Positions 5,745 through 53,333 of a stretch of DNA of 64,000 bases are shown here, in pieces. The notes beneath the pieces were generated by a model that saw nothing but the letters and a program-made list of their open reading frames with translations, was not told the DNA's origin and made no database searches. This DNA is from Candidatus Caldarchaeales archaeon (GTDB lineage: Archaea; Thermoproteota; Nitrososphaeria_A; Caldarchaeales; Calditenuaceae): assembly GCA_039630085.1 (NCBI GenBank), contig JBCNVM010000005.1, positions 14,122 through 78,121 on the forward strand, written 5' to 3'. Position numbers and translations under genes: made by a program. Every line of letters starts with the position of its first letter. Position 1 is the stretch's first letter.

Positions 5745-7529
5745 ATGGATGCGCAGTACATCAGGGGGCTGGTGGAGGCCGCGCAGGGCAAGCGGAGGCT
5801 CACGCTCCTCCTGAAGGGTGCACAGGTCCTCAACGTCTACTCGGGCGAGGTGGAGGAGGCCGACGTCGGGATTTACGGCGACAGGGTCGTCTACGTGGGG
5901 AGGGACGCGCCGAGCGCGGAGACCGTGCTGAACGTCGAGGGCGTGATCGTGCCGGGCTTCATCGACACCCACCTTCACATCGAGAGCAGCATGGTCACCC
6001 CCGCCAGGTTCGCGGAGGCCGTCCTCCCGCACGGGACGACGACGGTCTGCGCGGATCCTCACGAGATCGCGAACGTCCTCGGGATCGAGGGCGTCAGGAT
6101 GATGCTCGAGAACTCGAGGGGCCTGCCCATGAGGATCACGTACTTCGTGCCGACCTGCGTCCCCGAGTCCGACGCGGTCACGGCCGGGGCCGAAATCACC
6201 CCGGAGGACGTCGAGAGGGCCCTCGACTGGGAGGGGATAGTCGGGCTGGGCGAGGTGATGGACTTCGAGTCGGTCCTCGCGGGCCGCGAGAAGTTCATGC
6301 GGATCCTCGAGATAGGCTGGAGGAGGAGGTGCGTGATAGACGGCCACTGCGTCCTCCTTTCGGGCGCGAGGCTGAACGCGTACGTCGCGACGGGCCCCGA
6401 GGCGGACCACGAGAACTTCACCGTCGAGTCCGCGGTCGAGAAGCTCAGGAGGGGGATGTACGTCAAGCTCAGGGGACCCTACATCCTTGACCCGTCGAGG
6501 TTCGTGAGGGCGATCGGTTCGCTTCCGAGCCCCTGGGACCGGGTGATCCTGGTGACGGACGACGTGATGCCTGACACGCTCGCGGAGAGGGGCCATCTGG
6601 ACTTCGTTGTGAGGTCGATGATCGAAGCCGGCATGGACGAGGTCGAGGCGGTGCGGAGCGTCACGCTGAGGCCCGCGACCCACATGAGGATGTTCGAGCT
6701 GGGAGCGGTCTCGCCGGGCAAGGTCGCCGACTTGGTCGTCCTCGGGAGCCTGAGGAGGGTCGACGCGAGGATGGTGCTCTTCGGGGGCAGGGTCGTCGCG
6801 AGGGACGGGAGGCTCGTCGTGGACCTCCCCGAGAGGAAGTTCGACAGGAGGGCCCTCGGGACCGTCAAGGTGGGGGAACTGAGGCCCGAGGACTTCGAGT
6901 TCAGGCCGCCGGTGAGCGACGGCAGGCTGGTCCTGAACGTGATCGAGTTCAGGAGGCCCGACCCCTCGGTCGGGGACGTCTCGAGGGCGTTCCTCGAGAT
7001 GATCGTGACGAAGAGGTCGACGGCGGAGGTCGAGGTGAGGGGAGGCAGGGCGATGCTCGGAGACGTGGCGCTGATGGTCGTCGTGGAAAGGCACAGGCGC
7101 ACCGGGAAGAGGGGCTACGGGTTCGTGAAGGGCTTCATGGAGAGGGGCGCGATCGCGACGACCGTCGCCCACGACTCCCACAACCTCGCGGTCATAGGGA
7201 CCGACCCGAGGGACATGCACCTCGCGGCGACCGAGGTCGTCAAGTCCGAGGGGGGACTGGTCGCGGTCCTCAACGGCGAGGTCCTATCGAGGATAGAGCT
7301 CCCCATCGCGGGGCTGATGTCAGAGGAGCCGGTGCGGGTCATGGCTGAGAAGATGAAGGGGTTCAGGAAGGCGCTGGAGAGGCTCGGAGCCATCGACCAC
7401 CCCTACATGCCGATCGTCTCGCTCCTCACGCTGTCCGTCATCCCCGAGGCCCGCGTCACCGACAAGGGGCTCTTCGACGTCAACGCGCAGAGGTTCGTGG
7501 ACCCGGTAGCGGCCGTCGTCCCCGCGTGA
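5745..7529 (+). CDS. ade: adenine deaminase
   Basis: Amidohydrolase metal ligands and Ade-family motifs ([32 protein letters not shown]). Length about 590 aa. TATA aaataaattaa about 30 nt upstream. Confidence 0.85.
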
Positions 7530-7539
7530 ACCTGCGGCG

Positions 7540-8940
7540 GTGCGCAATTTGGAGCTGGACCTACTCCTGAGGGACTGCAGGGTAGCAGACCCGTTCGGGA
7601 CCTTCGAGTGCGACGTCGGTGTGGAGGGCGGGAAAATCGCGGTCATCGCGAAGTCCGTCGAGGCCCGGGCCGAGAAAGTGATCGACGCTTCCGGGAAGTT
7701 AGTCGTCCCGGGTGCGATAGACGGGCACGTGCACTTTGAGATGCAGTACGGAGGAGGGATCGCGACGGCCGACGACTTCGACTCCGGGAGCGCGGCGGCC
7801 TCGTGCGGCGGTGTCACGACCTTCATCGACTTCGTGACGCCGGAGAGAGGAGGCTCGGTCGTCGGGGCCTTCGAGGAGAGGCTTGCGGCCGCATCCGCGA
7901 GGTCGAGGATCGACTTCGGGCTCCACGTCTGCGTCCTCGAGTGGGGTCCGCGGGTCGAGGCCGAGCTGAACGAGCTCGTGGGCAGGAGGGGCGTCTCCTC
8001 GGTCAAGGTCTTCACGGCCTACAGCAGGAGGGGCCTGATGATCGACGACGGGTCCCTCCTCCGGGCGCTCAGATGGGCCGCGGGAGCCGGAGTGCTGGTC
8101 CTCTGCCACTGCGAGAACGAGTGGATCGTGCTCAGGGAGACCGAGAGGCTCGCGGAGGAGGCGAACGCGGACGTCTCGAGGTACGAGGAGAGCAGGCCGG
8201 CGGTCTCGGAGGCAGAGGCGGTCCTCAGGCTGGGCTACCTCTCGTCCGTGACAGGAGCCGAGGTCCTGGTCGTCCACCTCACGTCGGGGGCGGGGCTCAA
8301 GGCCGCGGAGGCCGCGAGGAGGATTGGAGCGAGGATGCTGGTCGAGACCTGTCCCCACTACCTCGTATTGTCCAAGGATGTCTACTCGAGGCCCGACGGC
8401 GGACTCTTCGTCATGGCGCCGCCCCTCAGGGCGAAGGAGGACGCTGAGGCCCTCTGGTCAGGGCTCGCCTCGGGCCAGATAGACGTCGTGGGGAGCGACC
8501 ACGCTCCCTACGCGTCGGCCATCAAGCTGAGGTCGAGGGACTTCCGGGAGATACCGGGAGGCGTACAGGGGACCGAGTCGATCGTCCCGATACTCTTCTC
8601 GGAGGGCGTGAGGAAGGGCAGGATAACTCTCGAGGAGTTCGTCCGCCTGACCTCCTATAACCCCGCGAGGGCCTACGGCCTCTATCCGAGGAAGGGGAGG
8701 ATTGCGGTGGGCGCCGACGCGGACATCGTCCTGATCGATCCGGAGAGGAGGGTGAGGCTCGGGAGGGACGTCCTCCACAGCAGGCTCGACTTCTCGATCT
8801 ACGAGGGGATGGAGGTGACCGGGTATCCGGTGATGACGGTCTCGAGGGGCGAGGTGGTCGCGGAGGACGGAGAGGTAACCTCGAGGCCCGGGAGGGGAGT
8901 TTACGTCCACAGGGCGACCAAGGCTCAGGGGCCCAAGTAG
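7540..8940 (+). CDS. cyclic amidohydrolase: dihydropyrimidinase/D-hydantoinase (HyuA-like)
   Basis: DHPase/hydantoinase motifs (VPGAIDGHVHFEM, SVKVFTAY, carboxylated-Lys region, VGSDHAPY). Confidence 0.8.
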   Translation: MRNLELDLLLRDCRVADPFGTFECDVGVEGGKIAVIAKSVEARAEKVIDASGKLVVPGAIDGHVHFEMQYGGGIATADDFDSGSAAASCGGVTTFIDFVTPERGGSVVGAFEERLAAASARSRIDFGLHVCVLEWGPRVEAELNELVGRRGVSSVKVFTAYSRRGLMIDDGSLLRALRWAAGAGVLVLCHCENEWIVLRETERLAEEANADVSRYEESRPAVSEAEAVLRLGYLSSVTGAEVLVVHLTSGAGLKAAEAARRIGARMLVETCPHYLVLSKDVYSRPDGGLFVMAPPLRAKEDAEALWSGLASGQIDVVGSDHAPYASAIKLRSRDFREIPGGVQGTESIVPILFSEGVRKGRITLEEFVRLTSYNPARAYGLYPRKGRIAVGADADIVLIDPERRVRLGRDVLHSRLDFSIYEGMEVTGYPVMTVSRGEVVAEDGEVTSRPGRGVYVHRATKAQGPK

Positions 8941-10190
8941 TGCCTCAGCTGCTTGACGTCCGGCGTTATCAGCGGTATCTCCCCGACCGTTGGGACGAGC
9001 TTCTCGACCTCCTTCAGGCCCGAGCCCGTGACCAGCACGACCGCTTCGTCGGACTCGTCGAGTTGGCCTTCGTCCCTCAATCTTATCGCGGCCGCGACAC
9101 CGACCGCGCCCGAGGGCTCCGCGAAGACGCCAGCCTTACTGGCGAGCAGCCTCACGGCCTCAAGGATCTCCTGGTCGCTTACCGCGACCGCTGTCCCTCC
9201 GGTCCTCCGGATTCCCTCCAACGCCGCGTCGCCGTCCCAAGGATACGGGTCCAGGAGCCCGGAGGCGATCGACTTGGGCGACCTCTCGGGTTCGACCTCG
9301 CTGAAGGAGAGCCCCCTCCTGACGGCCCTCACGAGGGGTTGGTTGCCCTCTGGCTGGACCGCGATCAGCCTCGGCATCTCGCCCTCCACGAGCCCGAGCT
9401 CGACGAGGTCCCTCACGCCCTTCCAGATCCCCGCGAGGAGGCAGCCCGAACCCGTCGGGACGATCACCGCGTCCGGGAACCTCCAGCCCAGCTGCTCCGC
9501 GACCTCGTAGAGGATGGTCTTGGGGCCCTCGACCTGATAGGGGTTGAAGGGTCCGAAGCTCGGGCAGGGGTACCAGCCGAACTCGTCGACCGCCATAAGC
9601 ATCGCCTGGACCGTCGGGTCCTTCCCCTCCTCGACCGCCCTGACCCTGAAAAGCCTCGCACCGTAGGAGAGCAGCTGCGCGGCCTTCCCCAGCGAGACGC
9701 TCTCGGGGACGAACGCGACGCACCTCAGCCCCAAGCTCGCGGCGTAGGCGGCGAGCGCGGATGCCGCGTTCCCGCTGGACGCGGTCACGACCGTCTCCAC
9801 CCCCCACTCGGCGGCCTTCGCGGCTCCCACGGCCATCGCCCTGTCCTTGAACGAGCCCGTCGGATTCCTGGTCTCGTCCTTCAGCCTCATCCTCCTCAGG
9901 CCGAGGTGGTCGTTGAGCCTCCTGGCGCAGAAGAGCGGTGTCAGGCCCTCGTCGAGGGGCGTGCCGAACTCCCTCGCGGCAGGGAGCAGCTCCCAGTACC
10001 TCCAGACCCCTCCGGTCCATGGCCTCTTTGAGACCGTCTCCCGTCTCAGGAACTCCTTCAGCTCCTCGTAGTCGTAGACGACGTCGAGCCTCCCCAGGTC
10101 CCTCGAGCCGCAGAGGACCGGCCTCTCGGCCGGCAGGTAGCTCCTCCCGCACTTGGAGCAGACCAGCTCGCTGACGAAGGACAAGCTCAT
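8925..10190 (-). CDS. thrC: threonine synthase
   Basis: N-terminal zinc-ribbon (CSKCGRSY…C) and the PLP site PTGSFKDR. ThrC-type length and motifs. Confidence 0.85.
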   Translation of the reverse strand: MSLSFVSELVCSKCGRSYLPAERPVLCGSRDLGRLDVVYDYEELKEFLRRETVSKRPWTGGVWRYWELLPAAREFGTPLDEGLTPLFCARRLNDHLGLRRMRLKDETRNPTGSFKDRAMAVGAAKAAEWGVETVVTASSGNAASALAAYAASLGLRCVAFVPESVSLGKAAQLLSYGARLFRVRAVEEGKDPTVQAMLMAVDEFGWYPCPSFGPFNPYQVEGPKTILYEVAEQLGWRFPDAVIVPTGSGCLLAGIWKGVRDLVELGLVEGEMPRLIAVQPEGNQPLVRAVRRGLSFSEVEPERSPKSIASGLLDPYPWDGDAALEGIRRTGGTAVAVSDQEILEAVRLLASKAGVFAEPSGAVGVAAAIRLRDEGQLDESDEAVVLVTGSGLKEVEKLVPTVGEIPLITPDVKQLRHYLGP

Positions 10191-11563
10191 GCACCTCCGC
10201 GCAGCGGCTCCACGGCCCTGTGCGGCCCCCCGCCGAGCCTCTCCCAGAGCCTCTCGACCGACCTGAGGACCTTCTCCTCCGCCTCCCTCTGGTCGACCCT
10301 CAGAAGCCTCCCGTCCCTTGCGACGACCTCGCCCCCGACCATCACGAGCCTTACGTCAGAGCCCCTCACGCCGTTGACGACGTAGGAGTACGGGTCTCCG
10401 GTCAGCGGCGCGGCCATTACCGTCGGCCTCACGACGATGAGGTCCGCGAGCTTCCCGGGCTTCAGGGACCCGAGGTCCCTCAGTCCGTAAGCCATAGCGG
10501 CCCTGACGGTCACCATCTCTAAGACCTCCTTCGCGGAGAGCGCGGTCGGGTCCCTCCTGTGGACCCTGTGGACCAAGAACGCGGCCCTGGCGTTCTCGAA
10601 GGCGTCGAAGACGTAGCCGTCGTTGCCGAGGCAGACGTTCACGCCCTCCCTGAGCATCTCGGGGACCGGTGAGACCCCGACCGCGTTCAGCATGTTGCTC
10701 ATCGGGTTGTGAGCCACGTTGGTTCCCGTCCTCGCGAGGACCGAGATCTCCTTAGGGGAGAGGTGAACGCAGTGGGCCAAGACGGCCTTCGGCGAGAGCA
10801 GCCCGAGCCCCTCGAGCCTCTCGACGGTCCTCACCCCGTACCTCTCGATGTTGTGGTAGACGTCGTTCGGCCCCTCGGAGACGTGGACCGTGATCGGGCA
10901 ATCGAACCGCTCCGAGAGCTCGACGGCCCTCCTGATCAGGTCGTCGGTGACCGTGAAGGACGCGTGGACGCTAACCATCCCCTTCGCCCTCCTCGAAGCG
11001 GAGCTCGAGAGGAACCGCTCGTTCTCCCTGAGCCCCCTCAGGCCCTCCTCGCCGCTCCTCCTCTCTGTGGCCTCGAAGGAGACCAGGCCCCTGATCCCGA
11101 CCTCGTCGACAGCCCTAGCTATCGCGTCGAGGGAGCCCTCTATCCCGTTGGGCGCCGAGTAAGTGTCGGCGAAGCAGGTGGTCCCGGTGAGGGCCATCTC
11201 CATGCACGCCGCGAGGGCCGTCGCGTAGGCCGCCTCGTTGTCGAGCCTCTCGTCCAGCGGCCACCAGACCCTCTGGAGGATCTGGAGGAAGTCGGAGGGC
11301 GGTTCGACCTTGAGGTTCGAGCCCCGCAGCGCGATCCCGTAGAGGTGGGTGTGGCCGCAGATCAGCCCGGGAAGCACGAAGCAGCCCCTCGCGTCGATGA
11401 CCTCGTCGGCCTTCGCCCCCCTCGTCACCTCCTCGACCTTTCCGACCGCGGCTATCCTCTCGTCCTCAACCAGTACGGCCCCTTCCCTGATCACCCCGAG
11501 ACCCTCGTCCATCGTGACGACCACGCCGCCCCTCACCAGCTTCCTCTCGTGCCCCATCTTCAC
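10187..11563 (-). CDS. ssnA: SsnA-like aminohydrolase (chlorohydrolase/MtaD-SsnA family amidohydrolase)
   Basis: Close motif-level match to E. coli SsnA (PGLICGHTHLYGIALRG vs PGIVCSHNHFYSGLSRG; DFLQILQRVWWPLDERLDNE vs DFISTLKNLWWRLDRALDEE). Metal ligands HxH…H…D are present. Confidence 0.8.
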   Translation of the reverse strand: MKMGHERKLVRGGVVVTMDEGLGVIREGAVLVEDERIAAVGKVEEVTRGAKADEVIDARGCFVLPGLICGHTHLYGIALRGSNLKVEPPSDFLQILQRVWWPLDERLDNEAAYATALAACMEMALTGTTCFADTYSAPNGIEGSLDAIARAVDEVGIRGLVSFEATERRSGEEGLRGLRENERFLSSSASRRAKGMVSVHASFTVTDDLIRRAVELSERFDCPITVHVSEGPNDVYHNIERYGVRTVERLEGLGLLSPKAVLAHCVHLSPKEISVLARTGTNVAHNPMSNMLNAVGVSPVPEMLREGVNVCLGNDGYVFDAFENARAAFLVHRVHRRDPTALSAKEVLEMVTVRAAMAYGLRDLGSLKPGKLADLIVVRPTVMAAPLTGDPYSYVVNGVRGSDVRLVMVGGEVVARDGRLLRVDQREAEEKVLRSVERLWERLGGGPHRAVEPLRGGA

Positions 11564-11566
11564 ACC

Positions 11567-12574
11567 TCAGAGCGCTGCGAGGGCCCTAACCGCGTACTCC
11601 ACGTCCCCGCTCAGCGGCAGGATGAGGGGCGCGGTGCAGCCGTGGGCCATGTACTCCTCGATCTTCCTCTTAACCTCCGAAGGCGTCCCCGATGCGGTGA
11701 TGAGCCTCACGACGTCGTCCGGCACGATCTCCATCGCCCTCTCGATCCCGCCCGGCTTCGCAGGCCAACCTCCCATCGCCCTCTGGACTTCCTCGATCAG
11801 GTCCTCGCTCACGCCGCTCGCCTTCATGATGTGGGGCTGCTGGCCGAGGGTCATCGTCACGTGCTTCTTCGCGAGCCTGATCGCGTGGTCGCCGTCCTCG
11901 TGGATCGAGCAGGCTATCAGCTGGGGCCTGTCGATCTCCTCGAGCCTCCTCCCGGCCTTCGCGGCCCCGGCCTTGATGTGCTCGATGGCTCTGTCGTTGT
12001 AGAGGGGCGAGACTAGGTAGTTGAGGAGGACGCCGTCAGCGATCTCGCCGGAGAGCTCCATCATCTTGAACCCGGTCGCGCCGATGTAGATAGGGATGTT
12101 CCTCGGGACAGGGCCCTTGCCGTGCAGGACGTCGAGCCTGACGCCCCTGAGCTTCACGAACTCGCCCTCGTAGGTCACCTCCTCCATCCTGAAGAGCCTC
12201 CTGATCGCCTCGACGTACTCCCTCATACACGTGAGGGGCTCTTTCCTCTCGATCCCGACCTTCCACGCGAGCGGGTCCCACCACGCCCCGAGCCCCAGCA
12301 GTATCCTGTCGTCGGCGAGCTCGTCCAGCGTCGCGAAGGTCTGCGCGATCAGGGCCGCGTTCCTGGTCCACGTGTTGATGACGCCCGCTCCCACCTTGAT
12401 CCTCCTAGTAACGGCGGCTATCGCGGTCATCGGGACGATCGCGTCCCTCGAGAGCCTGGACTCCGCGATCCAGACTGACTCGAACCCGTGCTCCTCCGCG
12501 ACCTGCGCGTACCTCATCATGTCCCTGACGTGCATGTCCTGGAGGTAAAGCCCGAGACGGGGTATCGAGCCCAC
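11567..12574 (-). CDS. F420-dependent luciferase-like oxidoreductase, Mer (methylene-H4MPT reductase)-like
   Basis: LLM fold. Strong similarity to Mer ([27 protein letters not shown]). Confidence 0.7.
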
Positions 12575-12603
12575 GCGTTAAGTCCCTCGCCGCGAGTAAT
12601 AAG

Positions 12604-13155
12604 ATGGATACCGGTAAGGGCGAGTTAAGCTTTTCACGGTCCGGGAGCAGTGGGGATTCGGTGTGGGTCATAGCGGTCTTCGGGTTCAAGATGGCCGGTA
12701 AGACGAGGCTCGCCTCGATGATCGTCTCGGCGCTCAGGTCCATGGGGTACAGGGTCGCGGCCGTGAAGCACGTCCACCACGCCGACTTCACGATTGAAAG
12801 GGAGGGGTCCGACAGCTGGAGGCTCTACCAGTCCGGCGCCGACCCCGTCATCGTCTCCTCGCCGAGGGAGACAGCGGTGATCCATAGGTCCCTGTCTATC
12901 AGGGGGATTGAGGACCTGAAGGGGCTCGCCGGCGACGTCGACTTCGTCGTCGTCGAGGGGTTCCAGTCGGTGATGCCCCAGGACTCCGAGGGCGTCGTCA
13001 GGATTAGGGTGCTCAGCAGGGAGGGCGAGGAGGCGGGGCCCAGCGACATCCCGGTCTCCTTCGCGTCCAACCCTGCGGCGAGGTACGTCCTGCCCGACGA
13101 GTTCGGGGAGCTCCTGTCGGAGGTCCTGAGGGCGGTCCGCGGGGGCAGCCGGTGA
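12604..13155 (+). CDS. mobB: molybdopterin-guanine dinucleotide biosynthesis adapter protein MobB
   Basis: P-loop VIAVFGFKMAGKTRL and the KHxHH motif (AVKHVHHADF). The start is probably internal, near 12630. Confidence 0.75.
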   Translation: MDTGKGELSFSRSGSSGDSVWVIAVFGFKMAGKTRLASMIVSALRSMGYRVAAVKHVHHADFTIEREGSDSWRLYQSGADPVIVSSPRETAVIHRSLSIRGIEDLKGLAGDVDFVVVEGFQSVMPQDSEGVVRIRVLSREGEEAGPSDIPVSFASNPAARYVLPDEFGELLSEVLRAVRGGSR

Positions 13156-13162
13156 GGCCGCG

Positions 13163-14359
13163 TTGAAGTCACTGAGGCTCGTGACCCTCGAAGAGGCCAG
13201 AAGGGCCGCGGAGGCCGCGGGGTCCCGGAAGACCCTGGATCGGGTCGAGCTGCCGATAGAGGAGGCGGTGGGCCGTATAGTCGCGGAGCCGGTGTTCTCG
13301 AGCACAGACGTCCCGGGGGTCGACAGGGCGGCCCTTGACGGTTTCGCGACCAAGTTCGACTTCTTGGAGAGGAGGGAGGGTGACGGTGCCGTCAGGCTCA
13401 GGCTCTCGGAGGCTCCCGTTGACGGGCCTTGGGCGGTGAGCGTCTTCACCGGGCAGCCGACCCCTCCGGGCTCCGACGTCGTGATCAGGGCGGAACACGC
13501 GAGGCTCGAGGGCCAGACGCTGTACTTCAGGGGAACGGCCGAGAGGTGGGAGAACGTCGAGAGGAGGGGCTCGTTCTTCGGGGCCGGCGATCCGGTCGTC
13601 GAGCGCGGCGATGTCATCAGGCCTCCGCACGTCGCCGTCCTCTCGGAGCTCGGGGTGAGGAGGGTCTCGGTGTACAGGAGGCCGAGGTGCGCGGTGATCT
13701 CGATCGGCGGCGAGCTCCTCGGCGACTCGGGGAGGGCCATCCCGAACGACTACGCCCACGTCGTCGCTTCGTACCTCTCGCAGATGGGCTGCGGGATCAC
13801 CTCGATCGAGGCGGTCGGGGACGGAGTCGAGGAGGTGGCGGGCGCGGTGGAGGAGGCTGCGGGCAGAAACGACCTAGTCGTCACCGTCGGAAGGGCCTCC
13901 AGCGGCAGCAACGACGTCGTCCAGAGGGCCTACTCGGGCATGGAGGGCGCGGAGGTCCTCTTCCACGGCGTGAGGCTCCACCCCGGCAAGCCTACTGGTC
14001 TGGTGATGCTGGGGGAGAAGTGCTGGCTGATACTCCCCGCCTCTCTCACCGCCGCGATCGCCGGCCTCCACCTGATCGGGGTGCCATACCTGAGGTCCCT
14101 TATCGGCCTCAGGACGCCTCCGCCTGAGCTCACGGCCAGGCTGGACGGCGACGCGCCCGGAAGGCCGGGGGTCAGCAGCGTCTACTTCGTCTCCATCGGG
14201 CCCTCAGGAGACGGGGTCGGGGCGAAAGTTCTCCCGAAGGGCGTCAACAACCTCTACACCGCGTCCAAGGCGAACGGATTCCTCGTCGTCCCGCCCGGCG
14301 CCCACATGGCTTCCGGCGAGGCCGCGAGGCTGACCCTCCTCGGGAGGCTGACTTACTGA
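13163..14359 (+). CDS. moeA: molybdopterin molybdenumtransferase MoeA
   Basis: MoeA domain architecture including GSDVVIR, SGGVSVG-like TVGRASSGSNDVV, HGVRLHPGKP. Confidence 0.85.
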   Translation: MKSLRLVTLEEARRAAEAAGSRKTLDRVELPIEEAVGRIVAEPVFSSTDVPGVDRAALDGFATKFDFLERREGDGAVRLRLSEAPVDGPWAVSVFTGQPTPPGSDVVIRAEHARLEGQTLYFRGTAERWENVERRGSFFGAGDPVVERGDVIRPPHVAVLSELGVRRVSVYRRPRCAVISIGGELLGDSGRAIPNDYAHVVASYLSQMGCGITSIEAVGDGVEEVAGAVEEAAGRNDLVVTVGRASSGSNDVVQRAYSGMEGAEVLFHGVRLHPGKPTGLVMLGEKCWLILPASLTAAIAGLHLIGVPYLRSLIGLRTPPPELTARLDGDAPGRPGVSSVYFVSIGPSGDGVGAKVLPKGVNNLYTASKANGFLVVPPGAHMASGEAARLTLLGRLTY

Positions 14360-14401
14360 CCGCGTAAGGCTTATCCAGACCGAGGGGGTTGGTGCGGTGA
14401 G

Positions 14402-14632
14402 ATGCCCGTCCAAGCGTACGTCCTCATACGGACCAGGCCCGGTTACGCGAAGAGGGTCGCCCAGGAGCTCACGAAGGTCCAAGGATGCCGCGCGGTCTGC
14501 AGCGTCACGGGGAGGTACGACGTGATAGCCTTCGTCGAGGCGGCCGACCTGCAGGCGCTCGGGTCCCTGATCGTCGAGCGCGTCCACGCCGTCGAGGGGG
14601 TCGAGAGGACGGAGACCGCGGTCGTCGTTTGA
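14402..14632 (+). CDS. stand-alone Lrp/AsnC C-terminal (RAM/ACT-like) domain protein
   Basis: 76 aa with the βαββαβ signature (AYVLIRTRPG…VCSVTGRYDVIAFVEA…). Confidence 0.6.
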   Translation: MPVQAYVLIRTRPGYAKRVAQELTKVQGCRAVCSVTGRYDVIAFVEAADLQALGSLIVERVHAVEGVERTETAVVV

Positions 14633-14736
14633 CGGCTGGGCGTCAAGACGGCAGGGCACCATACATCACTCTTTTATTGTTGATCGGCTCTCACTATAAC
14701 GAGTTGACGGCCCCCCAGCAGGTCCCTCTGGTCGAG

Positions 14737-16245
14737 ATGAGGGGGATAACGAAGAGGTTCCCGGGAGGGGTCGTAGCCAACGACGGTGTCGACTTCACCC
14801 TTTACGCGGGGGAGGTCCACGCGCTGCTGGGCGAGAACGGCGCTGGCAAGACGACGCTGATGAACATACTCTACGGTCTCTACGGAAAGGACTCGGGCGA
14901 GATCCTGATCGAGGGCAAGAGGGTCAACGTGAGGTCGCCCAAGGACGCGATAAGGCACGGACTCGGGATGGTCCACCAGCAGTTCAAGCTGATCCCCAAG
15001 CACACGGTCCTCGAGAACGTCGTCCTGGGGCTGAAGGAGGCCGGGATCGTGCTGGACTACGGCAGGCTGAGGTCGATGCTATCGGAGCTGGTCGCGAGGT
15101 ACGGTTGGAACGTCAGCCCCGACGACTACGTCTGGCAGCTCACGGCCTCCCAGAAGCAGCAGGTCGAGATCCTCAAGATGCTCGTGAGGAGGGCGAAGGT
15201 CCTGATACTCGACGAGCCGACGTCGATCCTCACGCCGCAGGAGACAGCCCAGTTCTTCGAGAGCGTCAGGGCGATGGCGAACTCGGGGATGGGCGTCGTG
15301 CTAGTGACGCACAAGCTCGAGGAGGTGATGAGGGTGAGCGACAGGGTCACGGTGATGAGGAAGGGGAAGGTCGTCGCGGTCAGGAGGACCTGCGAGGTCT
15401 CCATGGGCGAGCTCGTCTCCCTGATGATAGGGAGGGAGGTGGGACTCTCCTACCCGCACGCGTCCCAGCCCTCGCAGGAGCAGGTCCTGGTGGTGGAGGA
15501 CCTCCACGTGAGGGACGACAGGGGCCACCTAGCGGTGAAGGGGGTCTCGTTCAGCGTCAGGAGGGGCGAGATCTTCGGGATCGCGGGAGTTGCGGGGAAC
15601 GGCCAGGACGAGCTCCTCGAGGCGATCTACGGCCTCAGGAGGGTCTCGAAGGGGAGGGTGCTCCTCGCGGGGAAGGACGCGACGAACAGGCACACGTACG
15701 ACCTGGTCCTCGAGGGCGTCTCGATGATCGTCCCGGAGCCCCAGAAGGGCGTCGGTCTGGGCCTGGAGGTCGCCGAGAACCTCCTGCTGAAGTGCTACAG
15801 GAGGCCTCCCTACTCGAGGACCGGAGTGCTGAACAGGGACCTGATGAGGAGGAGGGCCGAGGAGCTGATAAGGAGCCTCTCGATCGTGACGAGGTCCCCG
15901 ACCGCGAAGGCCCAGACGCTCTCCGGCGGCAACCTCCAGAGGTTGGTGATCGCGAGGGAGCTCTTCGCGTGTCCCGCCGGCGAGCTGCCGCAGCTCGTCC
16001 TCGCGGCTTATCCGACGAAGGGCCTCGACGTCGGTGCGACGGACTTCGTCAGGAGGCTCCTCCTCGACCTGAAGTCCAAGGGCGTCGCGATCGTCCTCCT
16101 CTCCGACGACCTCGAGGAGCTACTCGCGATGAGCGACAGGATAGGCGTGATGTACAAGGGCGAGATGGTCGGAATACTGGAGAGAGGTTCGGCGAGCCTG
16201 GAGCGGGTGGGCGTCATGATGCTGGGAGCCCGGGGCGCGGGTTAG
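14737..16245 (+). CDS. ABC transporter ATP-binding protein with tandem ATPase domains (sugar/nucleoside CUT2-type, RbsA/MglA-like)
   Basis: Two ABC cassettes (GENGAGKTTL…LTASQKQQVEILKML…LDEPTS; GVAGNGQDEL…LSGGNLQRLVIAREL). Real start is the ATG at 14737; the track ORF begins upstream in a shadow frame. No permease or SBP is adjacent. Confidence 0.8.
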   Translation: MRGITKRFPGGVVANDGVDFTLYAGEVHALLGENGAGKTTLMNILYGLYGKDSGEILIEGKRVNVRSPKDAIRHGLGMVHQQFKLIPKHTVLENVVLGLKEAGIVLDYGRLRSMLSELVARYGWNVSPDDYVWQLTASQKQQVEILKMLVRRAKVLILDEPTSILTPQETAQFFESVRAMANSGMGVVLVTHKLEEVMRVSDRVTVMRKGKVVAVRRTCEVSMGELVSLMIGREVGLSYPHASQPSQEQVLVVEDLHVRDDRGHLAVKGVSFSVRRGEIFGIAGVAGNGQDELLEAIYGLRRVSKGRVLLAGKDATNRHTYDLVLEGVSMIVPEPQKGVGLGLEVAENLLLKCYRRPPYSRTGVLNRDLMRRRAEELIRSLSIVTRSPTAKAQTLSGGNLQRLVIARELFACPAGELPQLVLAAYPTKGLDVGATDFVRRLLLDLKSKGVAIVLLSDDLEELLAMSDRIGVMYKGEMVGILERGSASLERVGVMMLGARGAG

Positions 16246-17294
16246 CCCATCACCATGCACATCACCGCCTTCTGGACGTGCAGCCTGTTCTCGGCCTGCT
16301 CGAAGTAGAGCGAGTACTCCGGCTTGTCGATCACGTCGTCCGTGACCTCTTGGCCCCTGTCGGCGGGGCCGCAGTGCATGTACCTCCCCCTCCTCGTCAG
16401 GTCCATCAGCTCCTGGGTGCAGATCCAGTCCTTGAACCTGTTCTGGTACTCCACCGCGCCCTCCTTGTCGACCCTGCCGTTGTAGGGCGGGAAGAAGCCC
16501 CTCGGCGACCAGGCCTTCGGGTAGACGAAGTCAGCGCCCTCGAAGGCCTCCTTCATGTCGTGGACGACCGTGAAGCTCCCGCCGTACCTGTCGGCGTTCT
16601 CCCTGCAGACCTTGATCACTCCATCCTCCAGCTCGAAGCCCTTCGGGTGGGCGAGGACCACGTCCATTCCGAACATCGTCCCTATCAGCACGCAGCTCTG
16701 TGGGACTGCGAGCGGCTTCAGTCCGCCCGAGTATGCGTAGGAGACGACGAACTTCTTCCCCCTCGGGTTCGGGGCGACGTCGGTGATGGCCATGATGTCC
16801 GCGAGGGCCTGGAACGGGTGATAGAGGTCGTCCTCCATGTTCAGCACCGGTATCGAGCTCCACCTCGCGAACTCCCTAACGACCCTGTGGCCCCTCCCGA
16901 TGTGCCACTTCGCGGCGTCGCCGTAGATCCTGATCGCGATCGCGTCGCCGTACCTGCTCAGCACCCTCGCGACATCGGCGATCGACTCGGTCTGATAGGG
17001 CACCATGTCCTCGGGGAGGGTCGGGGTGTAGACGTCCTGCGGGCTGAGGAAGTGCGCGTGGCCCCCGAGCTGAAATATGCCCGCCTCGAAGGAGTTCCTG
17101 GTCCTTAAGCTCCTGTTGTAGAAGAGCATGAATAGCGTCCTCCCAGGCAGGTAGGGCGTCGGAACCCGGGACCTGAACTTCTCCCTGAGGTCCCTCGCGG
17201 CCCTCAGTACCTCATCGATCTCCTCTTTCGTGAAGTCGTTCGTGTTCAGGAAGGACCTGCCCCTCATGGAGCCCACGTAGCCCGGAACGCCCAT
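16242..17294 (-). CDS. ygeW: YgeW-like (knotted) carbamoyltransferase
   Basis: Transcarbamylase motifs (NRSLRTR, HPFQALAD, HCGP) plus extended identity to E. coli YgeW (LKPLAVPQSCVLIGTMFGMDVVLAHPKGF…GGSFTVVHDMKEAFEGADFVYPKAWSP). Confidence 0.8.
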   Translation of the reverse strand: MGVPGYVGSMRGRSFLNTNDFTKEEIDEVLRAARDLREKFRSRVPTPYLPGRTLFMLFYNRSLRTRNSFEAGIFQLGGHAHFLSPQDVYTPTLPEDMVPYQTESIADVARVLSRYGDAIAIRIYGDAAKWHIGRGHRVVREFARWSSIPVLNMEDDLYHPFQALADIMAITDVAPNPRGKKFVVSYAYSGGLKPLAVPQSCVLIGTMFGMDVVLAHPKGFELEDGVIKVCRENADRYGGSFTVVHDMKEAFEGADFVYPKAWSPRGFFPPYNGRVDKEGAVEYQNRFKDWICTQELMDLTRRGRYMHCGPADRGQEVTDDVIDKPEYSLYFEQAENRLHVQKAVMCMVMG

Positions 17295-17380
17295 AGCGGC
17301 CCGAGTGGTGACCGCCCTCTGATAGAGGTTACCGGGGGCGGCGCGCGTCTCCCGCCGGGGTGAAGGGTTATTAGCGCTCG

Positions 17381-18055
17381 ATGGGGGGTAATTGCGTGGC
17401 TTTCATAGGACGCCAGAAGCTCGAGGACGTCAGAAGGGTCGTCCTGATGGCCTCCAAGGACCACACCAGGAAGTCGATCCAGATCCTGAGGGCTTTGGGG
17501 GCGATGGTGGAGGGGCTCGTCGAGGGGAGCGCAGATAAGGCCTTCCTCCAGCAGAAGTTCAACGAGATCCTCAAGCTCGACGAGGAGTGCAAGGCCCTGA
17601 GGACGGAGGCCGAGGAGAAGATCCTCGAGGCGGGGGCCCTGCTGGCCGAGAGGGGTGACTTCATCAGGCTGCTCGGCTGCCTGGACAAGGTCCCAGACAG
17701 GCTCGAGGGAGTCGCTTACAGGACCCTGAGCCTCGTGGAGCTCGGGAAGCCCGACGACGAGGCCCTCAGGATGGTCGTCGACCTCCTCGAGGAGGTTGGG
17801 GTCTGCCTCGAGTCGCTGAACAGGGCGATCACCGCCCTCGAGATGGACTCGACGCAGGGCTACCAGAGGCTCAAGGAGGTCATGGCGCACGAGAAGAGGA
17901 TCGACGACCTCTACAGGAAGACGGGGATCGAGATCCTGAGGAGGGGCCAGCTGACCGCGCACACGCTGCTGCTGAGGGAGATCGTGGACCTCCTCGAGTC
18001 GGTCTCGGACATCTCGGAGGAGGCGGCGGAGGTCCTCAGCATCCTCTACAGGTAG
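17381..18055 (+). CDS. DUF47/PhoU-like family protein (TIGR00153)
   Basis: Two PhoU-like helical repeats and the characteristic C-terminal motif (E…AHT). Not associated with a PiT transporter here. Confidence 0.6.
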   Translation: MGGNCVAFIGRQKLEDVRRVVLMASKDHTRKSIQILRALGAMVEGLVEGSADKAFLQQKFNEILKLDEECKALRTEAEEKILEAGALLAERGDFIRLLGCLDKVPDRLEGVAYRTLSLVELGKPDDEALRMVVDLLEEVGVCLESLNRAITALEMDSTQGYQRLKEVMAHEKRIDDLYRKTGIEILRRGQLTAHTLLLREIVDLLESVSDISEEAAEVLSILYR

Positions 18056-18060
18056 CGGGG

Positions 18061-18624
18061 ATGGCCGCGGAGGCGAGGCCTCCCTTCAGAGGCGACTACG
18101 TCGAGGGCAGCGTCGTGGTCTTCGACAGGGCTCAGGCGAGGGCCGTCTACTCTCTCGGGTACTTCGGCAAGCCGCTCGGTGTGCCCAAGCCCAAGGGCGC
18201 GGACTTCGACGAGCCCCTCGTGCTCGACCTGATAGAAGCCCGGTACCTGATCGAGGAGGGGTACCTGGAGGTCTACAGGGAGGGGAGGAGGATGACCGCC
18301 GAGGAGGTCGCGGAGGCCGGGAGGGCGAACTACTCAAAGTACGACGACCTCTACTCGGTCTACAGGGACCTGAGGAAAAGGGGATACTACGTCAGCACCG
18401 GCATCAAGTTCGGGAGCGACTTCGCGGTCTACGTTTACGGGCCGGGCATAGACCACGCGCCGTTCATCGTGCTGGTGAGGTCCGAGGACGAGCAGCTCTG
18501 GGCGACGGACATCGTCAGGGCCGGGAGGCTCTCGACGACGGTGAAGAAGAACTTCCTGATCGCGACCGTCGACCGGGAGCGGGGACACGTGAGGTACCTC
18601 TCGATATCATGGGCGAGGATGTGA
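18061..18624 (+). CDS. endA: tRNA-splicing endonuclease (catalytic subunit)
   Basis: Catalytic C-terminal domain motifs (YSVYRDLRKRGYYVSTGIKFGSDFAVY… H… K). Confidence 0.8.
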   Translation: MAAEARPPFRGDYVEGSVVVFDRAQARAVYSLGYFGKPLGVPKPKGADFDEPLVLDLIEARYLIEEGYLEVYREGRRMTAEEVAEAGRANYSKYDDLYSVYRDLRKRGYYVSTGIKFGSDFAVYVYGPGIDHAPFIVLVRSEDEQLWATDIVRAGRLSTTVKKNFLIATVDRERGHVRYLSISWARM

Positions 18625-18626
18625 GG

Positions 18627-19160
18627 TTAGCCGCCCGTTCTGCCGATCACCATCTCGAGCAGCGTGCCGAGGACGAGCCAGGCCGTGTTCTTGTCTATCG
18701 CGACGCACGGAAGCACGGGTATCGAGGGAGGCACTCCGAGCACGAACCTCACGTCCTCGGGCCTAAGGGCGTGAGGCAGGTCCTGTTTGTTCGCCGCGAC
18801 GACTATCGGCAGCCTCGCGAACTGGGACCGGGCCCTCTTGAACTCCTCGACCGCTGAAGCGATCGACTCCGAGTCGCTCGAGTCAACCATGAAGATGACC
18901 CCGTTCGCCCCGACCGAGAGAACCCTCCACATGAAGGAGAACCTGGGCTGTCCGGGGCTCCCGAAGATCCTCACCACGTAGCCGTCCCCTATGTCGACCA
19001 TCCCGAAGTCCATCCCCACGGTCGTCTTCTCCTTCTTCCTCCTCTCCTCTGGAGAGGTCACCTCGACGTCCGTCGTCATGCTTATCCCAGCCAAAGTCTT
19101 GATGAAGGTGGTCTTCCCCGCGTTGAAAGGTCCCACGACGAGGACCTTGACGCTCCTCAT
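18627..19160 (-). CDS. small Ras-like GTPase (MglA/Arf-Rag-like, archaeal)
   Basis: G1 GPFNAGKTT, G3 DSPGQ-like (FGSPGQ), G4 NKQD. Confidence 0.8.
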   Translation of the reverse strand: MRSVKVLVVGPFNAGKTTFIKTLAGISMTTDVEVTSPEERRKKEKTTVGMDFGMVDIGDGYVVRIFGSPGQPRFSFMWRVLSVGANGVIFMVDSSDSESIASAVEEFKRARSQFARLPIVVAANKQDLPHALRPEDVRFVLGVPPSIPVLPCVAIDKNTAWLVLGTLLEMVIGRTGG

Positions 19161-32469: not shown

Positions 32470-33588
32470 TTAGATCGACCTCAGCCCCTCGATCAGCTTT
32501 GGGAGGAACTCGTAGAGGTCCCCGACGACGCAGTAGTGCGCGATCTGGAAAATGGGGGCGTTGGGGTCCGTGTTGACCGCTACGATCTTCTTCGCCCTCT
32601 GCATGCCGACCCTGTGCTGGAGAGCTCCGCTTATCCCCAGGGCGATGTAGACGTCCGGCGCGACGGTCTTCCCTGTCTGTCCGACCTGCCTCTCCTTAGT
32701 TATCAGACCCTCGAGCTCCTTCAGCTGGGCGTAGATCAGGGCCCTGCTCGAGCCGATCTCGGCCTTAAGGCCCAGCTTCTCCCGTATCAGCGCCTTCAGC
32801 TCCTCCGCCATCCTGTACGCCTCCCTCGGGTCCCTCGGGTTCCCTGCGGCGTCCCTCAGTATCCCGAGCCCCAGGCTGATGACGACGTTCGCCTCCTCGA
32901 GCTTCACCTCGCTCTTGGGGAGGCGCTTTGTCTCGAGGACCTCGACCTGGAAGTCGTCCTCGTTGAACCGGGGCTCCCACCTGATCACCTCGCCGTCCCT
33001 GCCCTCGTCCCTCGGGAGGGGCGTGAAGTTCCCGGGCCTCACGCTGCTGATCTGGGGCCTGTGCTTCGGCGTGAAGATCTTCGCGACCCTCGTGGCGAAG
33101 TCGGGCCTCACCTGCGCGATGCAGTCCTTGTAGATGTACCGGCCAGTGGGTAGGTTCATGACGAAGTCCTCGACTATGAGGTCGATCACGTCCGCGGCGA
33201 GGCCCGTCCTCGTCCTGTAAGCTACCCTAGGTCCGAGGTCCTTCCCGATCTCGCTGGTGACGAAGAGCAGCGCCCACGGCTTCAGCTTCAGGACCATGTC
33301 GGAGAGCACGGTCGTGTACGGCAGGACCTGGTAGTCCTTGAGGCGGGGGTCGTCGCAGTAGATCACCTTGTCTGCCCCGTAGTAAATCGGCTCCCTCACC
33401 AGGTCCCCGAGGTTGTAACCCATCAGGACGCAGACGACCTTCATCCCAACCTTCTCGGCGATCTTCCTCGCACCGGCTATGACCTCGGTCGTCGCCCTGG
33501 TGAGCTGGCCGTCCTCGTGCTCGCAGTAGACCCAGACGTCGGTGTACCCCTCTATCCTGATCTCAAAGCTTGGCAGCTGCGAGGACAC
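32470..33588 (-). CDS. etfA: electron transfer flavoprotein alpha subunit (EtfA/FixB)
   Basis: ETF alpha FAD-binding C-terminal domain (ALGISGALQHRVGMQRAKKIVAVNTDPNAPIF). Confidence 0.85.
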   Translation of the reverse strand: MSSQLPSFEIRIEGYTDVWVYCEHEDGQLTRATTEVIAGARKIAEKVGMKVVCVLMGYNLGDLVREPIYYGADKVIYCDDPRLKDYQVLPYTTVLSDMVLKLKPWALLFVTSEIGKDLGPRVAYRTRTGLAADVIDLIVEDFVMNLPTGRYIYKDCIAQVRPDFATRVAKIFTPKHRPQISSVRPGNFTPLPRDEGRDGEVIRWEPRFNEDDFQVEVLETKRLPKSEVKLEEANVVISLGLGILRDAAGNPRDPREAYRMAEELKALIREKLGLKAEIGSSRALIYAQLKELEGLITKERQVGQTGKTVAPDVYIALGISGALQHRVGMQRAKKIVAVNTDPNAPIFQIAHYCVVGDLYEFLPKLIEGLRSI

Positions 33589-53022: not shown

Positions 53023-53333
53023 GAGGCTCCCTGAGCCGGAGGGTCACGAGGGTCGAGAGGGGGCTCGCGAGGATCGCGAGGGCCGTTGAGAGGAGGTCGC
53101 AGGAGGGGCAGGCGCCGTCGGACTGGAGGCGGCTCGAGGAGGAGGTCTGGTCGCTGGTCCAGGAGGCCTGCTCGCTTTCACAGGCCGCGAAGTCCAAGGG
53201 CGACATCAGGACTTCCCAGGCCTGCGTTGGAATGGCACTGAGGGGGCTGGCGCTGCTGGGGAGGCTGAGGAGGGAACGGGAGCTGGAGGAGATCAGGGCC
53301 CTTGTCGAGCGGATGGAGGGCGGGTCGGGGTGA
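53019..53333 (+). CDS. small helical protein, candidate terminase small subunit / DNA-binding partner
   Basis: 104 aa, predicted alpha-helical and basic. ATGA-coupled immediately upstream of the large terminase. Confidence 0.35.
   Translation: MRGSLSRRVTRVERGLARIARAVERRSQEGQAPSDWRRLEEEVWSLVQEACSLSQAAKSKGDIRTSQACVGMALRGLALLGRLRRERELEEIRALVERMEGGSG

Follow-up and report, generated by a model that had tools for sequence, protein, structure and literature searches.

The window analyzed here—a stretch of 64,000 nucleotides from a hot-spring archaeon of the Candidatus Caldarchaeales (Aigarchaeota), family Calditenuaceae (GenBank assembly GCA_039630085.1, contig JBCNVM010000005.1, positions 14,122 to 78,121 of the forward strand)—carries between positions 5745 and 17294 a group of genes that, as judged by sequence comparison, probably constitutes a purine-catabolic cluster homologous in organization to the reductive uric-acid (2,8-dioxopurine) cluster of Escherichia coli and Clostridia, in a variant depending on coenzyme F420. 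The F420 variant has so far been noted only bioinformatically, in Chloroflexota; the archaeal version is new. The genes that carry this assignment encode a luciferase-family (LLM) F420-dependent oxidoreductase, an SsnA-like amidohydrolase, a pyridoxal phosphate (PLP) enzyme of fold type II resembling threonine synthase (ThrC), a D-hydantoinase, an adenine-deaminase-like amidohydrolase, and a carbamoyltransferase termed CT-A (Table 1). The assignment builds on homology, on operon structure, and on a co-location that is conserved in rearranged order across two domains of life; the enzymatic steps given below are all proposals drawn from these. A previous reading made from the letters of this DNA (the sequence-only reading) had described the region as the archaeal counterpart of the bacterial ygeW–hyuA–ssnA locus. 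The conserved co-location, the presence of xanthine dehydrogenase (XDH) and carbamate kinase in the related cluster of Caldarchaeum, and the trees speak for this description, but the SsnA-like protein and CT-A fail the curated SsnA and YgeW cut-offs.

Gene organization and its conservation in archaea

The genes for the LLM, the SsnA-like amidohydrolase, and the PLP enzyme form, in this order, an operon on the minus strand. The first two are separated by a gap of 3 to 9 nt—the public gene call of the SsnA-like gene begins at 11557 and yields 456 aa—and between the SsnA-like stop codon and the start of the PLP gene there is an overlap of 4 nt. Convergent on this operon is a second pair, the adenine-deaminase-like gene and the hydantoinase gene, the latter starting approximately 10 to 20 nt past the adenine-deaminase-like gene, depending on the choice of the start codon. 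The gene mobB is divergent from the LLM gene, so that in this lineage the operon is bordered by mobB–moeA at its other end. All genes that the sequence-only reading had listed within approximately 12 kb were recovered at their positions by NCBIfam and Pfam family scans, by G+C content at the third codon position (GC3) of approximately 0.9, and by gene calls on the identical Logan contig L002. The G+C content of the window is 64 to 68%, and the GC3 of approximately 0.9 marks the true reading frames.

A scan of GTDB species genomes yielded 21 archaeal loci, which were scored by tblastn with the window proteins. In every one of the 17 Caldarchaeales loci for which upstream DNA is available, the LLM gene directly precedes the SsnA-like gene in the same orientation, at a distance of 3 to 9 nt. 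Of the 21 loci, 14 carry the PLP gene, 11 carry CT-A, and eight carry the hydantoinase, these eight all from Calditenuaceae, Calditenuis, and Pelearchaeum. The Caldarchaeum loci have no hydantoinase, and Pelearchaeum lacks a carbamoyltransferase within 10 kb. The co-location as such is kept across Calditenuaceae, Calditenuis, Pelearchaeum, and Caldarchaeum and, because it recurs in 21 related archaeal loci, is not a matter of chance. The invariant core in these archaea is the pair of LLM and SsnA-like genes—not the minimal core of YgeW, HyuA, and SsnA that had been suggested from the window. A locus from the Conexivisphaerales (L021) features the SsnA-like gene and has no LLM within 10 kb.

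The adjacency of mobB–moeA to the cluster recurs only in L020, a relative with 90% identity (JAVQSZ01), and that of a small gene of the sulfite-oxidase family only in L003, L004, and L020, the nearest relatives of the window; hence, both lie outside the conserved unit. The earlier description of the locus as embedded with molybdenum-cofactor and F420 genes is correct in that mobB–moeA and the LLM gene are present; however, mobB–moeA does not belong to the conserved unit, and the LLM is its most conserved component rather than part of the surroundings.

The cluster of Caldarchaeum (L025) is decisive here and includes XDH and carbamate kinase next to the pair. Its gene order reads: permease, permease, ABC ATPase, Bmp, adenine deaminase, LLM, SsnA-like; followed by the FAD, 2Fe-2S, and Mo subunits of XDH, a second carbamoyltransferase (CT-B), carbamate kinase, ThrC-like PLP enzyme, V4R, CysK-like, and CT-A. 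The carbamate kinase exceeds its family cut-off clearly (TIGR00746, 432 bits; cut-off 358) and is 46% identical to YqeA.

Related clusters in other lineages

The same families recur outside the Caldarchaeales. In Chloroflexota, SsnA was found by an exhaustive search of 50%-identity cluster representatives followed by cluster look-ups; this protein carries the NCBI name 'putative aminohydrolase SsnA' and belongs to the canonical SsnA clade. The locus concerned (L028/L029) features genes for a hydantoinase, an M20 peptidase, a carbamoyltransferase, carbamate kinase, two PLP proteins (PALP424 and PALP455), SsnA, fno, cofE, cofD, cofC, an LLM, and an XdhD-like enzyme. Compared with L028, the window proteins show identities of 60% for the LLM, 41% for the ThrC-like PLP enzyme (against PALP424), 40% for the carbamoyltransferase, 36% for the SsnA-like protein, and 35% for the hydantoinase. 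The Chloroflexota carbamoyltransferase has N-acetylornithine carbamoyltransferase (AOTCase) as its best model, below the cut-off, and PALP424 passes NF006050—the same NCBIfam pattern as that of the window proteins. This locus also encodes two conserved proteins of 247 aa and approximately 845 aa without a Pfam or NCBIfam match (9251–9994 and 16240–18777), of which the larger is flanked by the LLM gene on one side and the XdhD-like gene on the other.

In Haloarcula (L032), a Bmp ABC system, an LLM 56% identical to that of the window, a xanthine/uracil permease, a ThrC-like PLP enzyme, and hydantoinase-like and SsnA-like genes occur together. In one deposited Haloarcula record, the SsnA-like gene lies on a plasmid and is annotated as N-ethylammeline chlorohydrolase. 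An archaeal contig (L031) carries PNP, XDH, a UacX-like reductase, a canonical SsnA, a PLP enzyme, and a carbamoyltransferase next to carbamate kinase; a second carbamoyltransferase gene on it is 52% identical to CT-B. On a bacterial contig (L035), an SsnA-like gene of the loose group around the window protein ('clade A') sits between an XdhD-like gene and a UacX-like reductase. A metagenome contig (L042) features, within 16 kb, a PLP enzyme, XDH three times, CT-B, LLM, SsnA-like, hydantoinase, and carbamate kinase genes. Taken by component, XDH lies directly beside the LLM–SsnA-like pair or the SsnA gene in Caldarchaeum, L031, L035, L042, and Chloroflexota, and a true carbamate kinase is part of the Caldarchaeum, L031, and L042 clusters. 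Gene context was uninformative for the Asgard homologue (L030) and for the nearest representative from outside the Caldarchaeales (L034, on a 6-kb contig).

Enzymes of the cluster

The pathway of E. coli and Clostridium—described as still unresolved in the sequence-only reading—was solved in 2025 and is a reductive 2,8-dioxopurine route (PMC12507026; bioRxiv 10.1101/2025.04.24.650524). XdhD reduces urate to 2,8-dioxopurine; YgfK or the PydA-like UacX dearomatizes this compound; SsnA opens the ring to yield ureidomethylhydantoin or 5-ureidodihydrouracil; HyuA opens the remaining ring to 2,3-diureidopropionate; YgeW—with the carbamate kinase YqeA making ATP—and YgeY strip the two ureido groups; and YgeX turns diaminopropionate into pyruvate (PMC12507026; bioRxiv 10.1101/2025.04.24.650524). 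It was shown biochemically that SsnA, the dearomatizing reductase, HyuA, YgeW/YqeA, YgeY, and YgeX form this pathway, and archaea are unmentioned in both reports (PMC12507026; bioRxiv 10.1101/2025.04.24.650524). For the SsnA neighborhoods of Chloroflexota, a bioinformatic remark notes a luciferase-family protein (PF00296), a putative F420 enzyme, instead of YgfK/UacX (PMC12507026, Fig. 3c). A full-text search of the literature returned nothing for Aigarchaeota together with xanthine dehydrogenase, nor for SsnA together with F420 and archaea, and published metabolic reconstructions of Aigarchaeota make no mention of purine catabolism.

The LLM belongs to the F420-dependent branch of its family: the top 15 NCBIfam matches are all F420 classes, and the closest PDB matches are Mer with 170 bits and Fgd with 64 bits, ahead of the FMN-dependent SsuD with 50 bits. 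Mer itself was rejected as an assignment, the score of 202 bits standing against an equivalog cut-off of 349 and the lineage being non-methanogenic. No YgfK homologue was found in the window, and the LLM is likely the dearomatizing purine reductase that takes the place of YgfK/UacX. The picrate hydride transferases set a precedent for F420-dependent LLM enzymes that dearomatize their substrate by hydride transfer. The orthologues are 57 to 87% identical across clusters and domains. The LLM is the sole F420-related gene of the window; orthologous LLMs in Chloroflexota-type loci adjoin fno, cofC, cofD, and cofE, and F420 biosynthesis was reported for Calditenuis (PMC4681859).

A metagenome scan with an alignment of LLM orthologues detected at least 580 relatives, and counts were made on the 44 best loci (57–87% identity) among those flanked by 8 kb or more of DNA; since these loci are phylogenetically non-independent, the fractions are descriptive only. 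A purine-related marker lies within 10 kb in 32 of the 44 loci (73%), a genuine SsnA-type gene in 20 (45%), the Mo subunit of XDH in 19 (43%), and fno, cofE, or cofD in nine to 12. Another recurrent type is represented by the metagenome loci L053, L057, L058, L065, and L069: two XDH Mo subunits and an LLM orthologue (60–63%) adjoining a true-type adenine deaminase, together with a Bmp ABC system and an MtaD/GuaD-like amidohydrolase; an SsnA-type gene is absent within 10 kb. From these loci, the LLM may also work with partners other than an SsnA-type enzyme.

For the SsnA-like amidohydrolase, SsnA is the top-scoring family in NCBIfam. The two models for this family, NF005540 and TIGR03314, are presumably the basis of IPR017700, which we take to be the SsnA family used in the survey of PMC12507026. 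Against the E. coli locus, the protein matches ssnA with 152 bits versus 80 bits for guaD, and most of its nearest 50%-identity cluster representatives score 220 to 300 bits against E. coli SsnA. An NCBI protein from a metagenome-assembled genome labeled 'Candidatus Caldarchaeales archaeon' matches the window protein at 100% identity; homologues with 62 to 80% identity are labeled Calditenuaceae, Calditenuis, Pelearchaeum, Caldarchaeum, or Nitrososphaerota. A neighbor-joining (NJ) tree was built from 150 sequences and 434 columns, with 200 bootstraps on a subset of 69 sequences and with the MtaD/DadD-like sequences labeled by NCBIfam. In this tree, the clade of the window protein together with canonical SsnA splits from the MtaD/DadD-like sequences and from GuaD with a bootstrap of 72%—a moderate support, from NJ only—and the canonical SsnA clade, comprising E. 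coli, Chloroflexota, and L031, is recovered with 80%. The window protein retains the metal ligands HxH, HxxE, and D. Only four columns discriminate canonical SsnA from MtaD-like sequences, too few for use; the window protein features the SsnA state at two and the MtaD state at none. The enzyme is proposed to act as the ring-opening hydrolase on the purine once it has been reduced.

The hydantoinase passes the dihydropyrimidinase equivalog TIGR02033 (Table 1), which we take to be the basis of IPR011778. Its closest solved structures are D-hydantoinases and dihydropyrimidinases, and HyuA resembles it no more than other D-hydantoinases do. Homologues with 32 to 47% identity are present in the Chloroflexota, L031, L035, L042, and Haloarcula clusters. 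The identities to the E. coli proteins—29% between the SsnA-like protein and SsnA, 33% between CT-A and YgeW, and 36% between the hydantoinase and HyuA (full length, E 4e-88)—are those of ordinary remote homology and not the unusually strong matches that had been asserted.

The carbamoyltransferase CT-A is not a YgeW by the curated models: it reaches 155.4 bits with NF005538 (cut-off 453) and 149.5 bits with TIGR03316 (cut-off 500). The YgeW models rank sixth, outscored by those of AOTCase and ornithine carbamoyltransferase (OTCase). Among PDB sequences, AOTCase scores 208 bits, the OTCase of P. furiosus 195, and YgeW (3q98) 140. The YgeW-specific insertions AALDDGYKQGVLPQRP and ISGVSCKEG are absent from CT-A in the alignment (A1). 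Instead, CT-A features an insertion of nine residues of its own, TLPEDMVPY, in the region aligned with the '80s loop' of carbamoyltransferases; this insertion is conserved in the Caldarchaeum orthologue (L025, 19843–20919) and absent from YgeW, CT-B, ArgF, and AOTCase. In addition, CT-A carries the motif HCGP where HCLP is usual. In an NJ tree with a small taxon sample (13 sequences, 321 columns, 500 bootstraps), CT-A, CT-B, the Chloroflexota carbamoyltransferase, and YgeW of E. coli and E. faecalis cluster at 95% with the Xanthomonas AOTCase outside; adding AOTCase to this group yields 98%, with ArgF, ArgI, and PyrB outside. Both CT-A and the SsnA-like protein thus fall outside the generic OTCase and MtaD clades. 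CT-A and CT-B are new relatives of YgeW and are 40% identical to each other. In 11 related loci, CT-A is encoded no more than 10 kb from the SsnA-like gene, with 80 to 95% identity; its identity to the L031 carbamoyltransferase that adjoins carbamate kinase, the PLP enzyme, and SsnA is 56%. A housekeeping OTCase was rejected as the identity of CT-A: because the canonical ArgF is encoded separately in the window (Table 1), CT-A is not the arginine-pathway enzyme. Its proposed function is the phosphorolytic cleavage of a ureido intermediate.

The PLP enzyme passes the cut-offs for threonine synthase, NF006050 (Table 1) and TIGR00260 (193 bits; cut-off 167), its nearest solved relatives are threonine synthases, and it shares the PLP-lysine motif NPTGSFKDR with ThrC. 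Compared with the structurally characterized ThrC of Aquifex, B. subtilis, M. tuberculosis, and T. thermophilus, three conserved motifs are altered: ASTGNT to ASSGNA; NSVNPxRxEGQKT to GPFNPYQVEGPKT; and PVGNAGN to PTGSGCL. The loss of the Arg and an N-terminal Cys4 ribbon are common to all cluster-linked PLP orthologues, namely those of Calditenuis, Caldarchaeum, Chloroflexota, Haloarcula, and L031. Judging by the T. thermophilus ThrC structures, the altered residues are presumably the phosphate site for O-phosphohomoserine; if so, this subfamily is not a threonine synthase, and the ThrC-like cluster enzymes annotated as 'threonine synthase' are probably mis-annotated. The model of diaminopropionate (DAP) ammonia-lyase yields 52 bits (cut-off 276), and the identity to YgeX is 22%. 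The enzyme is proposed as a functional replacement of YgeX. The sequence-only reading had rightly noted that carbamate kinase, DAP ammonia-lyase, and XdhD are not found in the window, but it had overlooked this gene, which would fill the DAP ammonia-lyase slot.

The adenine-deaminase-like protein is a divergent subtype, as its sequence indicates: it is 63 to 94% identical among the Calditenuaceae and Pelearchaeum loci, but shares only approximately 40% identity with the bona fide adenine deaminase encoded in the Caldarchaeum loci, an enzyme that reaches 567 bits with TIGR01178 (cut-off 472.5). The ABC ATPase is 51 to 70% identical to the ATPases of related loci and always convergent with CT-A. 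In Caldarchaeum and Pelearchaeum, it sits with a Bmp binding protein and two BPD_transp_2 permeases and, hence, belongs to a complete transporter; in the window and in Calditenuis, it is an orphan with neither permease nor binding protein nearby, and no homologue of the Bmp binding protein or permeases was found in the whole window. Bmp-type transporters are of the purine-nucleoside type.

Proposed pathway

In the proposed pathway, purine nucleosides or bases would be imported—of the Bmp-type ABC system, only the ATPase is present in the window—and adenine would be deaminated by the adenine-deaminase-like enzyme. A Mo hydroxylase of the XDH family, encoded in the Caldarchaeum cluster and not in the window, would make an oxidized purine such as 2,8-dioxopurine. 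The LLM would then pass a hydride from F420H2 and dearomatize the oxopurine, most likely 2,8-dioxopurine, in the role of YgfK/UacX, and the co-transcribed SsnA-like enzyme would hydrolyze the reduced ring at once and thereby pull the unfavorable reduction forward. The ring that is left, a hydantoin or a dihydropyrimidine, may be opened by the D-hydantoinase to yield 2,3-diureidopropionate. CT-A—and CT-B where present—would remove a ureido group by phosphorolysis as carbamoyl phosphate, with a gain of ATP where carbamate kinase is present. Finally, the ThrC-derived PLP enzyme would turn 2,3-diaminopropionate or ureido-alanine into pyruvate and ammonia, the role of YgeX. The involvement of a carbamoyltransferase implies ureido intermediates and, hence, a purine that is oxidized at C2 and/or C8; if this holds, the organism would either encode a Mo hydroxylase outside the window or import purines that are already oxidized.

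A bolder version is conceivable, though rather doubtful: Caldarchaeales, and apparently some haloarchaea, would degrade the purine ring driven by F420H2 and carry out three steps by enzymes not seen in the bacterial pathway—the LLM, the ThrC-derived lyase, and CT-A with CT-B—and the route of the Calditenuaceae might run without XDH on a different oxopurine. In this version, the ThrC-derived lyase may eliminate the 3-ureido or amino group directly. CT-A and CT-B would replace YgeW and YgeY, and both ureido groups would end as carbamoyl phosphate, worth up to two ATP per purine via carbamate kinase.

Evaluation of the assignment and its alternatives

Several points weigh against a purine-catabolic cluster of the uric-acid type. 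The window contains no XDH, as searched with the XDH subunits of Caldarchaeum and E. coli, and no homologue of carbamate kinase, of the YgeY M20 peptidase, of YgeX, or of a purine permease; the F420-biosynthesis genes cofC, cofD, cofE, and fno were not found in it either. When the Caldarchaeum XDH Mo subunit was compared with 5.8 billion proteins, none of the best 120 matches listed lies on a large Calditenuis or Pelearchaeum contig; the named matches among those listed are 'Candidatus Caldarchae…' plus a few unrelated taxa. The SsnA-like protein remains below both curated cut-offs of its top-scoring family (NF005540, 350.7 versus 444 bits; TIGR03314, 323.8 versus 455.5 bits) and is not part of the canonical SsnA clade, and its own loose clade A is not monophyletic (5% bootstrap). 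CT-A forms a transcription unit by itself, detached from the operon and 4.7 kb away from the SsnA-like gene; the tightest XDH-containing clusters embed its paralogue CT-B and not CT-A, and L039 and L042 carry CT-B. About a quarter of the loci of LLM orthologues have no purine marker. In addition, the trees are NJ trees with limited sampling, and the steps assigned to the archaeal proteins and to the Chloroflexota LLM rest on sequence.

Some of these points would be accommodated if a related N-heterocycle were degraded instead of 2,8-dioxopurine—guanine-derived xanthine, for example, or a purine imported in an already oxidized state—so that the Calditenuaceae version would be free of XDH, have an LLM and an SsnA-like enzyme with a substrate other than that of YgfK and SsnA, and keep the logic of reduction, hydrolysis, removal of the ureido group, and PLP lyase. 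This is an unlikely reading on the evidence at hand. It agrees with the absence of XDH from the window and within 10 kb in the Calditenuis, Pelearchaeum, and L036 loci, with the position of the SsnA-like protein outside the canonical clade, and with the divergence of the adenine-deaminase-like gene, which stays below the TIGR01178 cut-off. Several LLM loci that feature XDH and adenine deaminase with only MtaD/GuaD-like amidohydrolases nearby point in the same direction. However, the high identity of the LLMs across the clusters with XDH and SsnA suggests one conserved substrate, the carbamoyltransferase implies a purine oxidized in the manner described above, and XDH may be encoded elsewhere in the genome.

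Reductive catabolism of pyrimidines or hydantoins is improbable to a higher degree. Here, the LLM would be an F420-dependent analogue of dihydropyrimidine dehydrogenase, the hydantoinase a dihydropyrimidinase, the carbamoyltransferase would act on an N-carbamoyl amino acid, and the SsnA-like protein would be a deaminase of the cytosine type. The hydantoinase, by its equivalog match and its nearest structures, fits such a role, and both SsnA and YgfK/UacX share an evolutionary kinship with enzymes of the Pyd pathway (PMC12507026). Yet the genes that keep recurring nearby are specific to purines, namely those for adenine deaminase, Mo hydroxylases of the XDH family, and transporters of the Bmp type. 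The SsnA-like protein has its nearest relatives in the SsnA family, and no beta-alanine or beta-ureidopropionase genes were seen.

That the genes form no functional unit and are chance housekeeping neighbors—threonine synthase, an arginine-pathway carbamoyltransferase, a methylthioadenosine (MTA) or 5'-deoxyadenosine deaminase, a Mer homologue of C1 metabolism, and molybdenum-cofactor genes—is very improbable and largely refuted by synteny: the threonine synthase and AOTCase matches, the labeling of many SsnA-like homologues by JGI as MTA/SAH deaminase, and the non-conserved adjacency of mobB–moeA and of the sulfite-oxidase-family gene are consistent with it, but the same families come together, in rearranged order, in Chloroflexota, in Haloarcula, in the Caldarchaeales, and in a further archaeal lineage; the window encodes its canonical ArgF at another place; the PLP enzyme no longer has the conserved motifs of ThrC; and the SsnA-like protein stands apart from MtaD-like sequences in the tree.

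Comparison with known systems

The proposed F420-dependent purine cluster shares with the E. coli cluster ygeW-ygeX-ygeY-hyuA-yqeA...ygfK-ssnA-ygfM-xdhD an SsnA-type amidohydrolase beside a dearomatizing reductase, a D-hydantoinase, a YgeW-related carbamoyltransferase, and a fold-type-II PLP enzyme. The XDH-family Mo enzyme and the carbamate kinase of E. coli are also present in related archaeal loci, but not in the window. The two also differ: the reductase YgfK is an NAD(P)H/FMN/FAD/Fe-S protein, whereas the archaeal one is predicted to be an F420-dependent LLM; YgeX is replaced by a ThrC-derived enzyme; and the M20 peptidase YgeY has no counterpart, Caldarchaeum and L031 carrying the two paralogous carbamoyltransferases CT-A and CT-B instead.

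The Chloroflexota clusters have the LLM, the ThrC-like PLP enzyme, a carbamoyltransferase that is not of the YgeW type, the hydantoinase, and the SsnA-type gene in common with the archaeon. They differ in having fno, cofC, cofD, and cofE between SsnA and the LLM, whereas the LLM gene directly abuts the SsnA-like gene in the archaeon; in featuring an M20 peptidase, carbamate kinase, and a fused XdhD-like enzyme, none of which is in the window; and in an SsnA that belongs to the canonical clade, unlike the archaeal protein.

The UacX-type uricolytic clusters, such as that of Clostridioides difficile, follow the same overall logic (PMC12507026). UacX-type versions also occur in archaea (L031) and by clade-A SsnA-like genes (L035). 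The reductase of this type is a PydA-like DHO_dh and Fe-S protein that is presumably ferredoxin-dependent, unlike the LLM, and in C. difficile the hydrolase UacY stands in place of carbamoyltransferase and carbamate kinase.

Two further comparisons concern single enzymes. ThrC shares the fold-type-II PLP fold and the motif NPTGSFKDR with the window enzyme, which differs from it by the motif losses including the Arg, by the Cys4 ribbon, and by its setting in a purine cluster. The arginine deiminase pathway has in common the phosphorolysis of a ureido group to carbamoyl phosphate coupled to ATP synthesis—an analogy that was drawn for YgeW/YqeA in the preprint of the Dodd laboratory (bioRxiv 10.1101/2025.04.24.650524). 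Its substrate is citrulline, whereas a purine-derived ureido acid is proposed for the archaeon; moreover, catabolic OTCase has an SMG-type motif region, which CT-A, in the group related to YgeW and AOTCase, lacks.

Further features of the window

The gene of the small sulfite-oxidase-family protein lies just outside the 5745 start of the noted region and is divergent from the adenine-deaminase-like gene, with approximately 100 bp between them. Rfam and tRNA scans revealed no RNA element in the region. A terminase large subunit (Terminase_6N and 6C) is encoded at 53330–54643 on the plus strand, followed downstream by an open reading frame (ORF) with a weak ABC/AAA match (54589–56109) and by further ORFs without a Pfam match (56619–57503 and 57509–58489); the segment 53330–58489 may be an integrated virus or the remnant of a provirus in the Caldarchaeales chromosome. 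Ordinary housekeeping functions are represented by an alpha/beta pair of the electron-transfer flavoprotein (ETF) with an ETF-QO-like oxidoreductase (30769–34765) and by an archaeal-type phosphoenolpyruvate carboxylase (39996–41564).

Table 1. Genes of the proposed purine cluster and its surroundings, in window coordinates, with family matches (bit scores; curated cut-offs in brackets).
Feature	Position	Strand	Family evidence
Small sulfite-oxidase-family Mo protein, 208 aa	5016-5642	-	PF00174 143 bits; NCBIfam matches all below cut-off; gene call from L002
Adenine-deaminase-like amidohydrolase, 594 aa	5745-7529	+	TIGR01178 438 bits (472.5); PF13382 Adenine_deam_C 179 bits
D-hydantoinase/dihydropyrimidinase (HyuA slot)	7549-8940	+	TIGR02033 445.2 bits (393.25)
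ThrC-like fold-type-II PLP enzyme, 421 aa	8925-10190	-	PF00291 257 bits; NF006050 322.7 bits (303)
SsnA-like amidohydrolase	10187-11563	-	Best NCBIfam model SsnA NF005540 350.7 bits (444)
LLM F420-dependent oxidoreductase ('Mer-like')	11567-12574	-	PF00296 237 bits
MobB, molybdenum-cofactor guanylylation accessory protein	12604-13155	+	TIGR00176 93 bits (76)
MoeA, molybdopterin molybdotransferase	13163-14359	+	PF03453 and PF00994
ABC ATPase with tandem nucleotide-binding domains, Bmp/nucleoside-sugar type	~14704-16245	+	Two PF00005 domains
Carbamoyltransferase CT-A	16242-17294	-	PF02729 and PF00185; best model AOTCase 275 bits (288)
Canonical ArgF	49421-50350		

Biological implications

A conserved archaeal version would extend the anaerobic uric-acid pathway, solved only for gut bacteria, to a second domain of life and to geothermal habitats. 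The LLM orthogroup, by its identity across domains, provides a concrete candidate for an F420-dependent purine reductase. Haloarcula species are in culture, which would make the pathway accessible to genetics. Should the carbamoyl-phosphate route be in operation, purines scavenged from nucleic acids would serve these archaea as a source of energy as well as of nitrogen.

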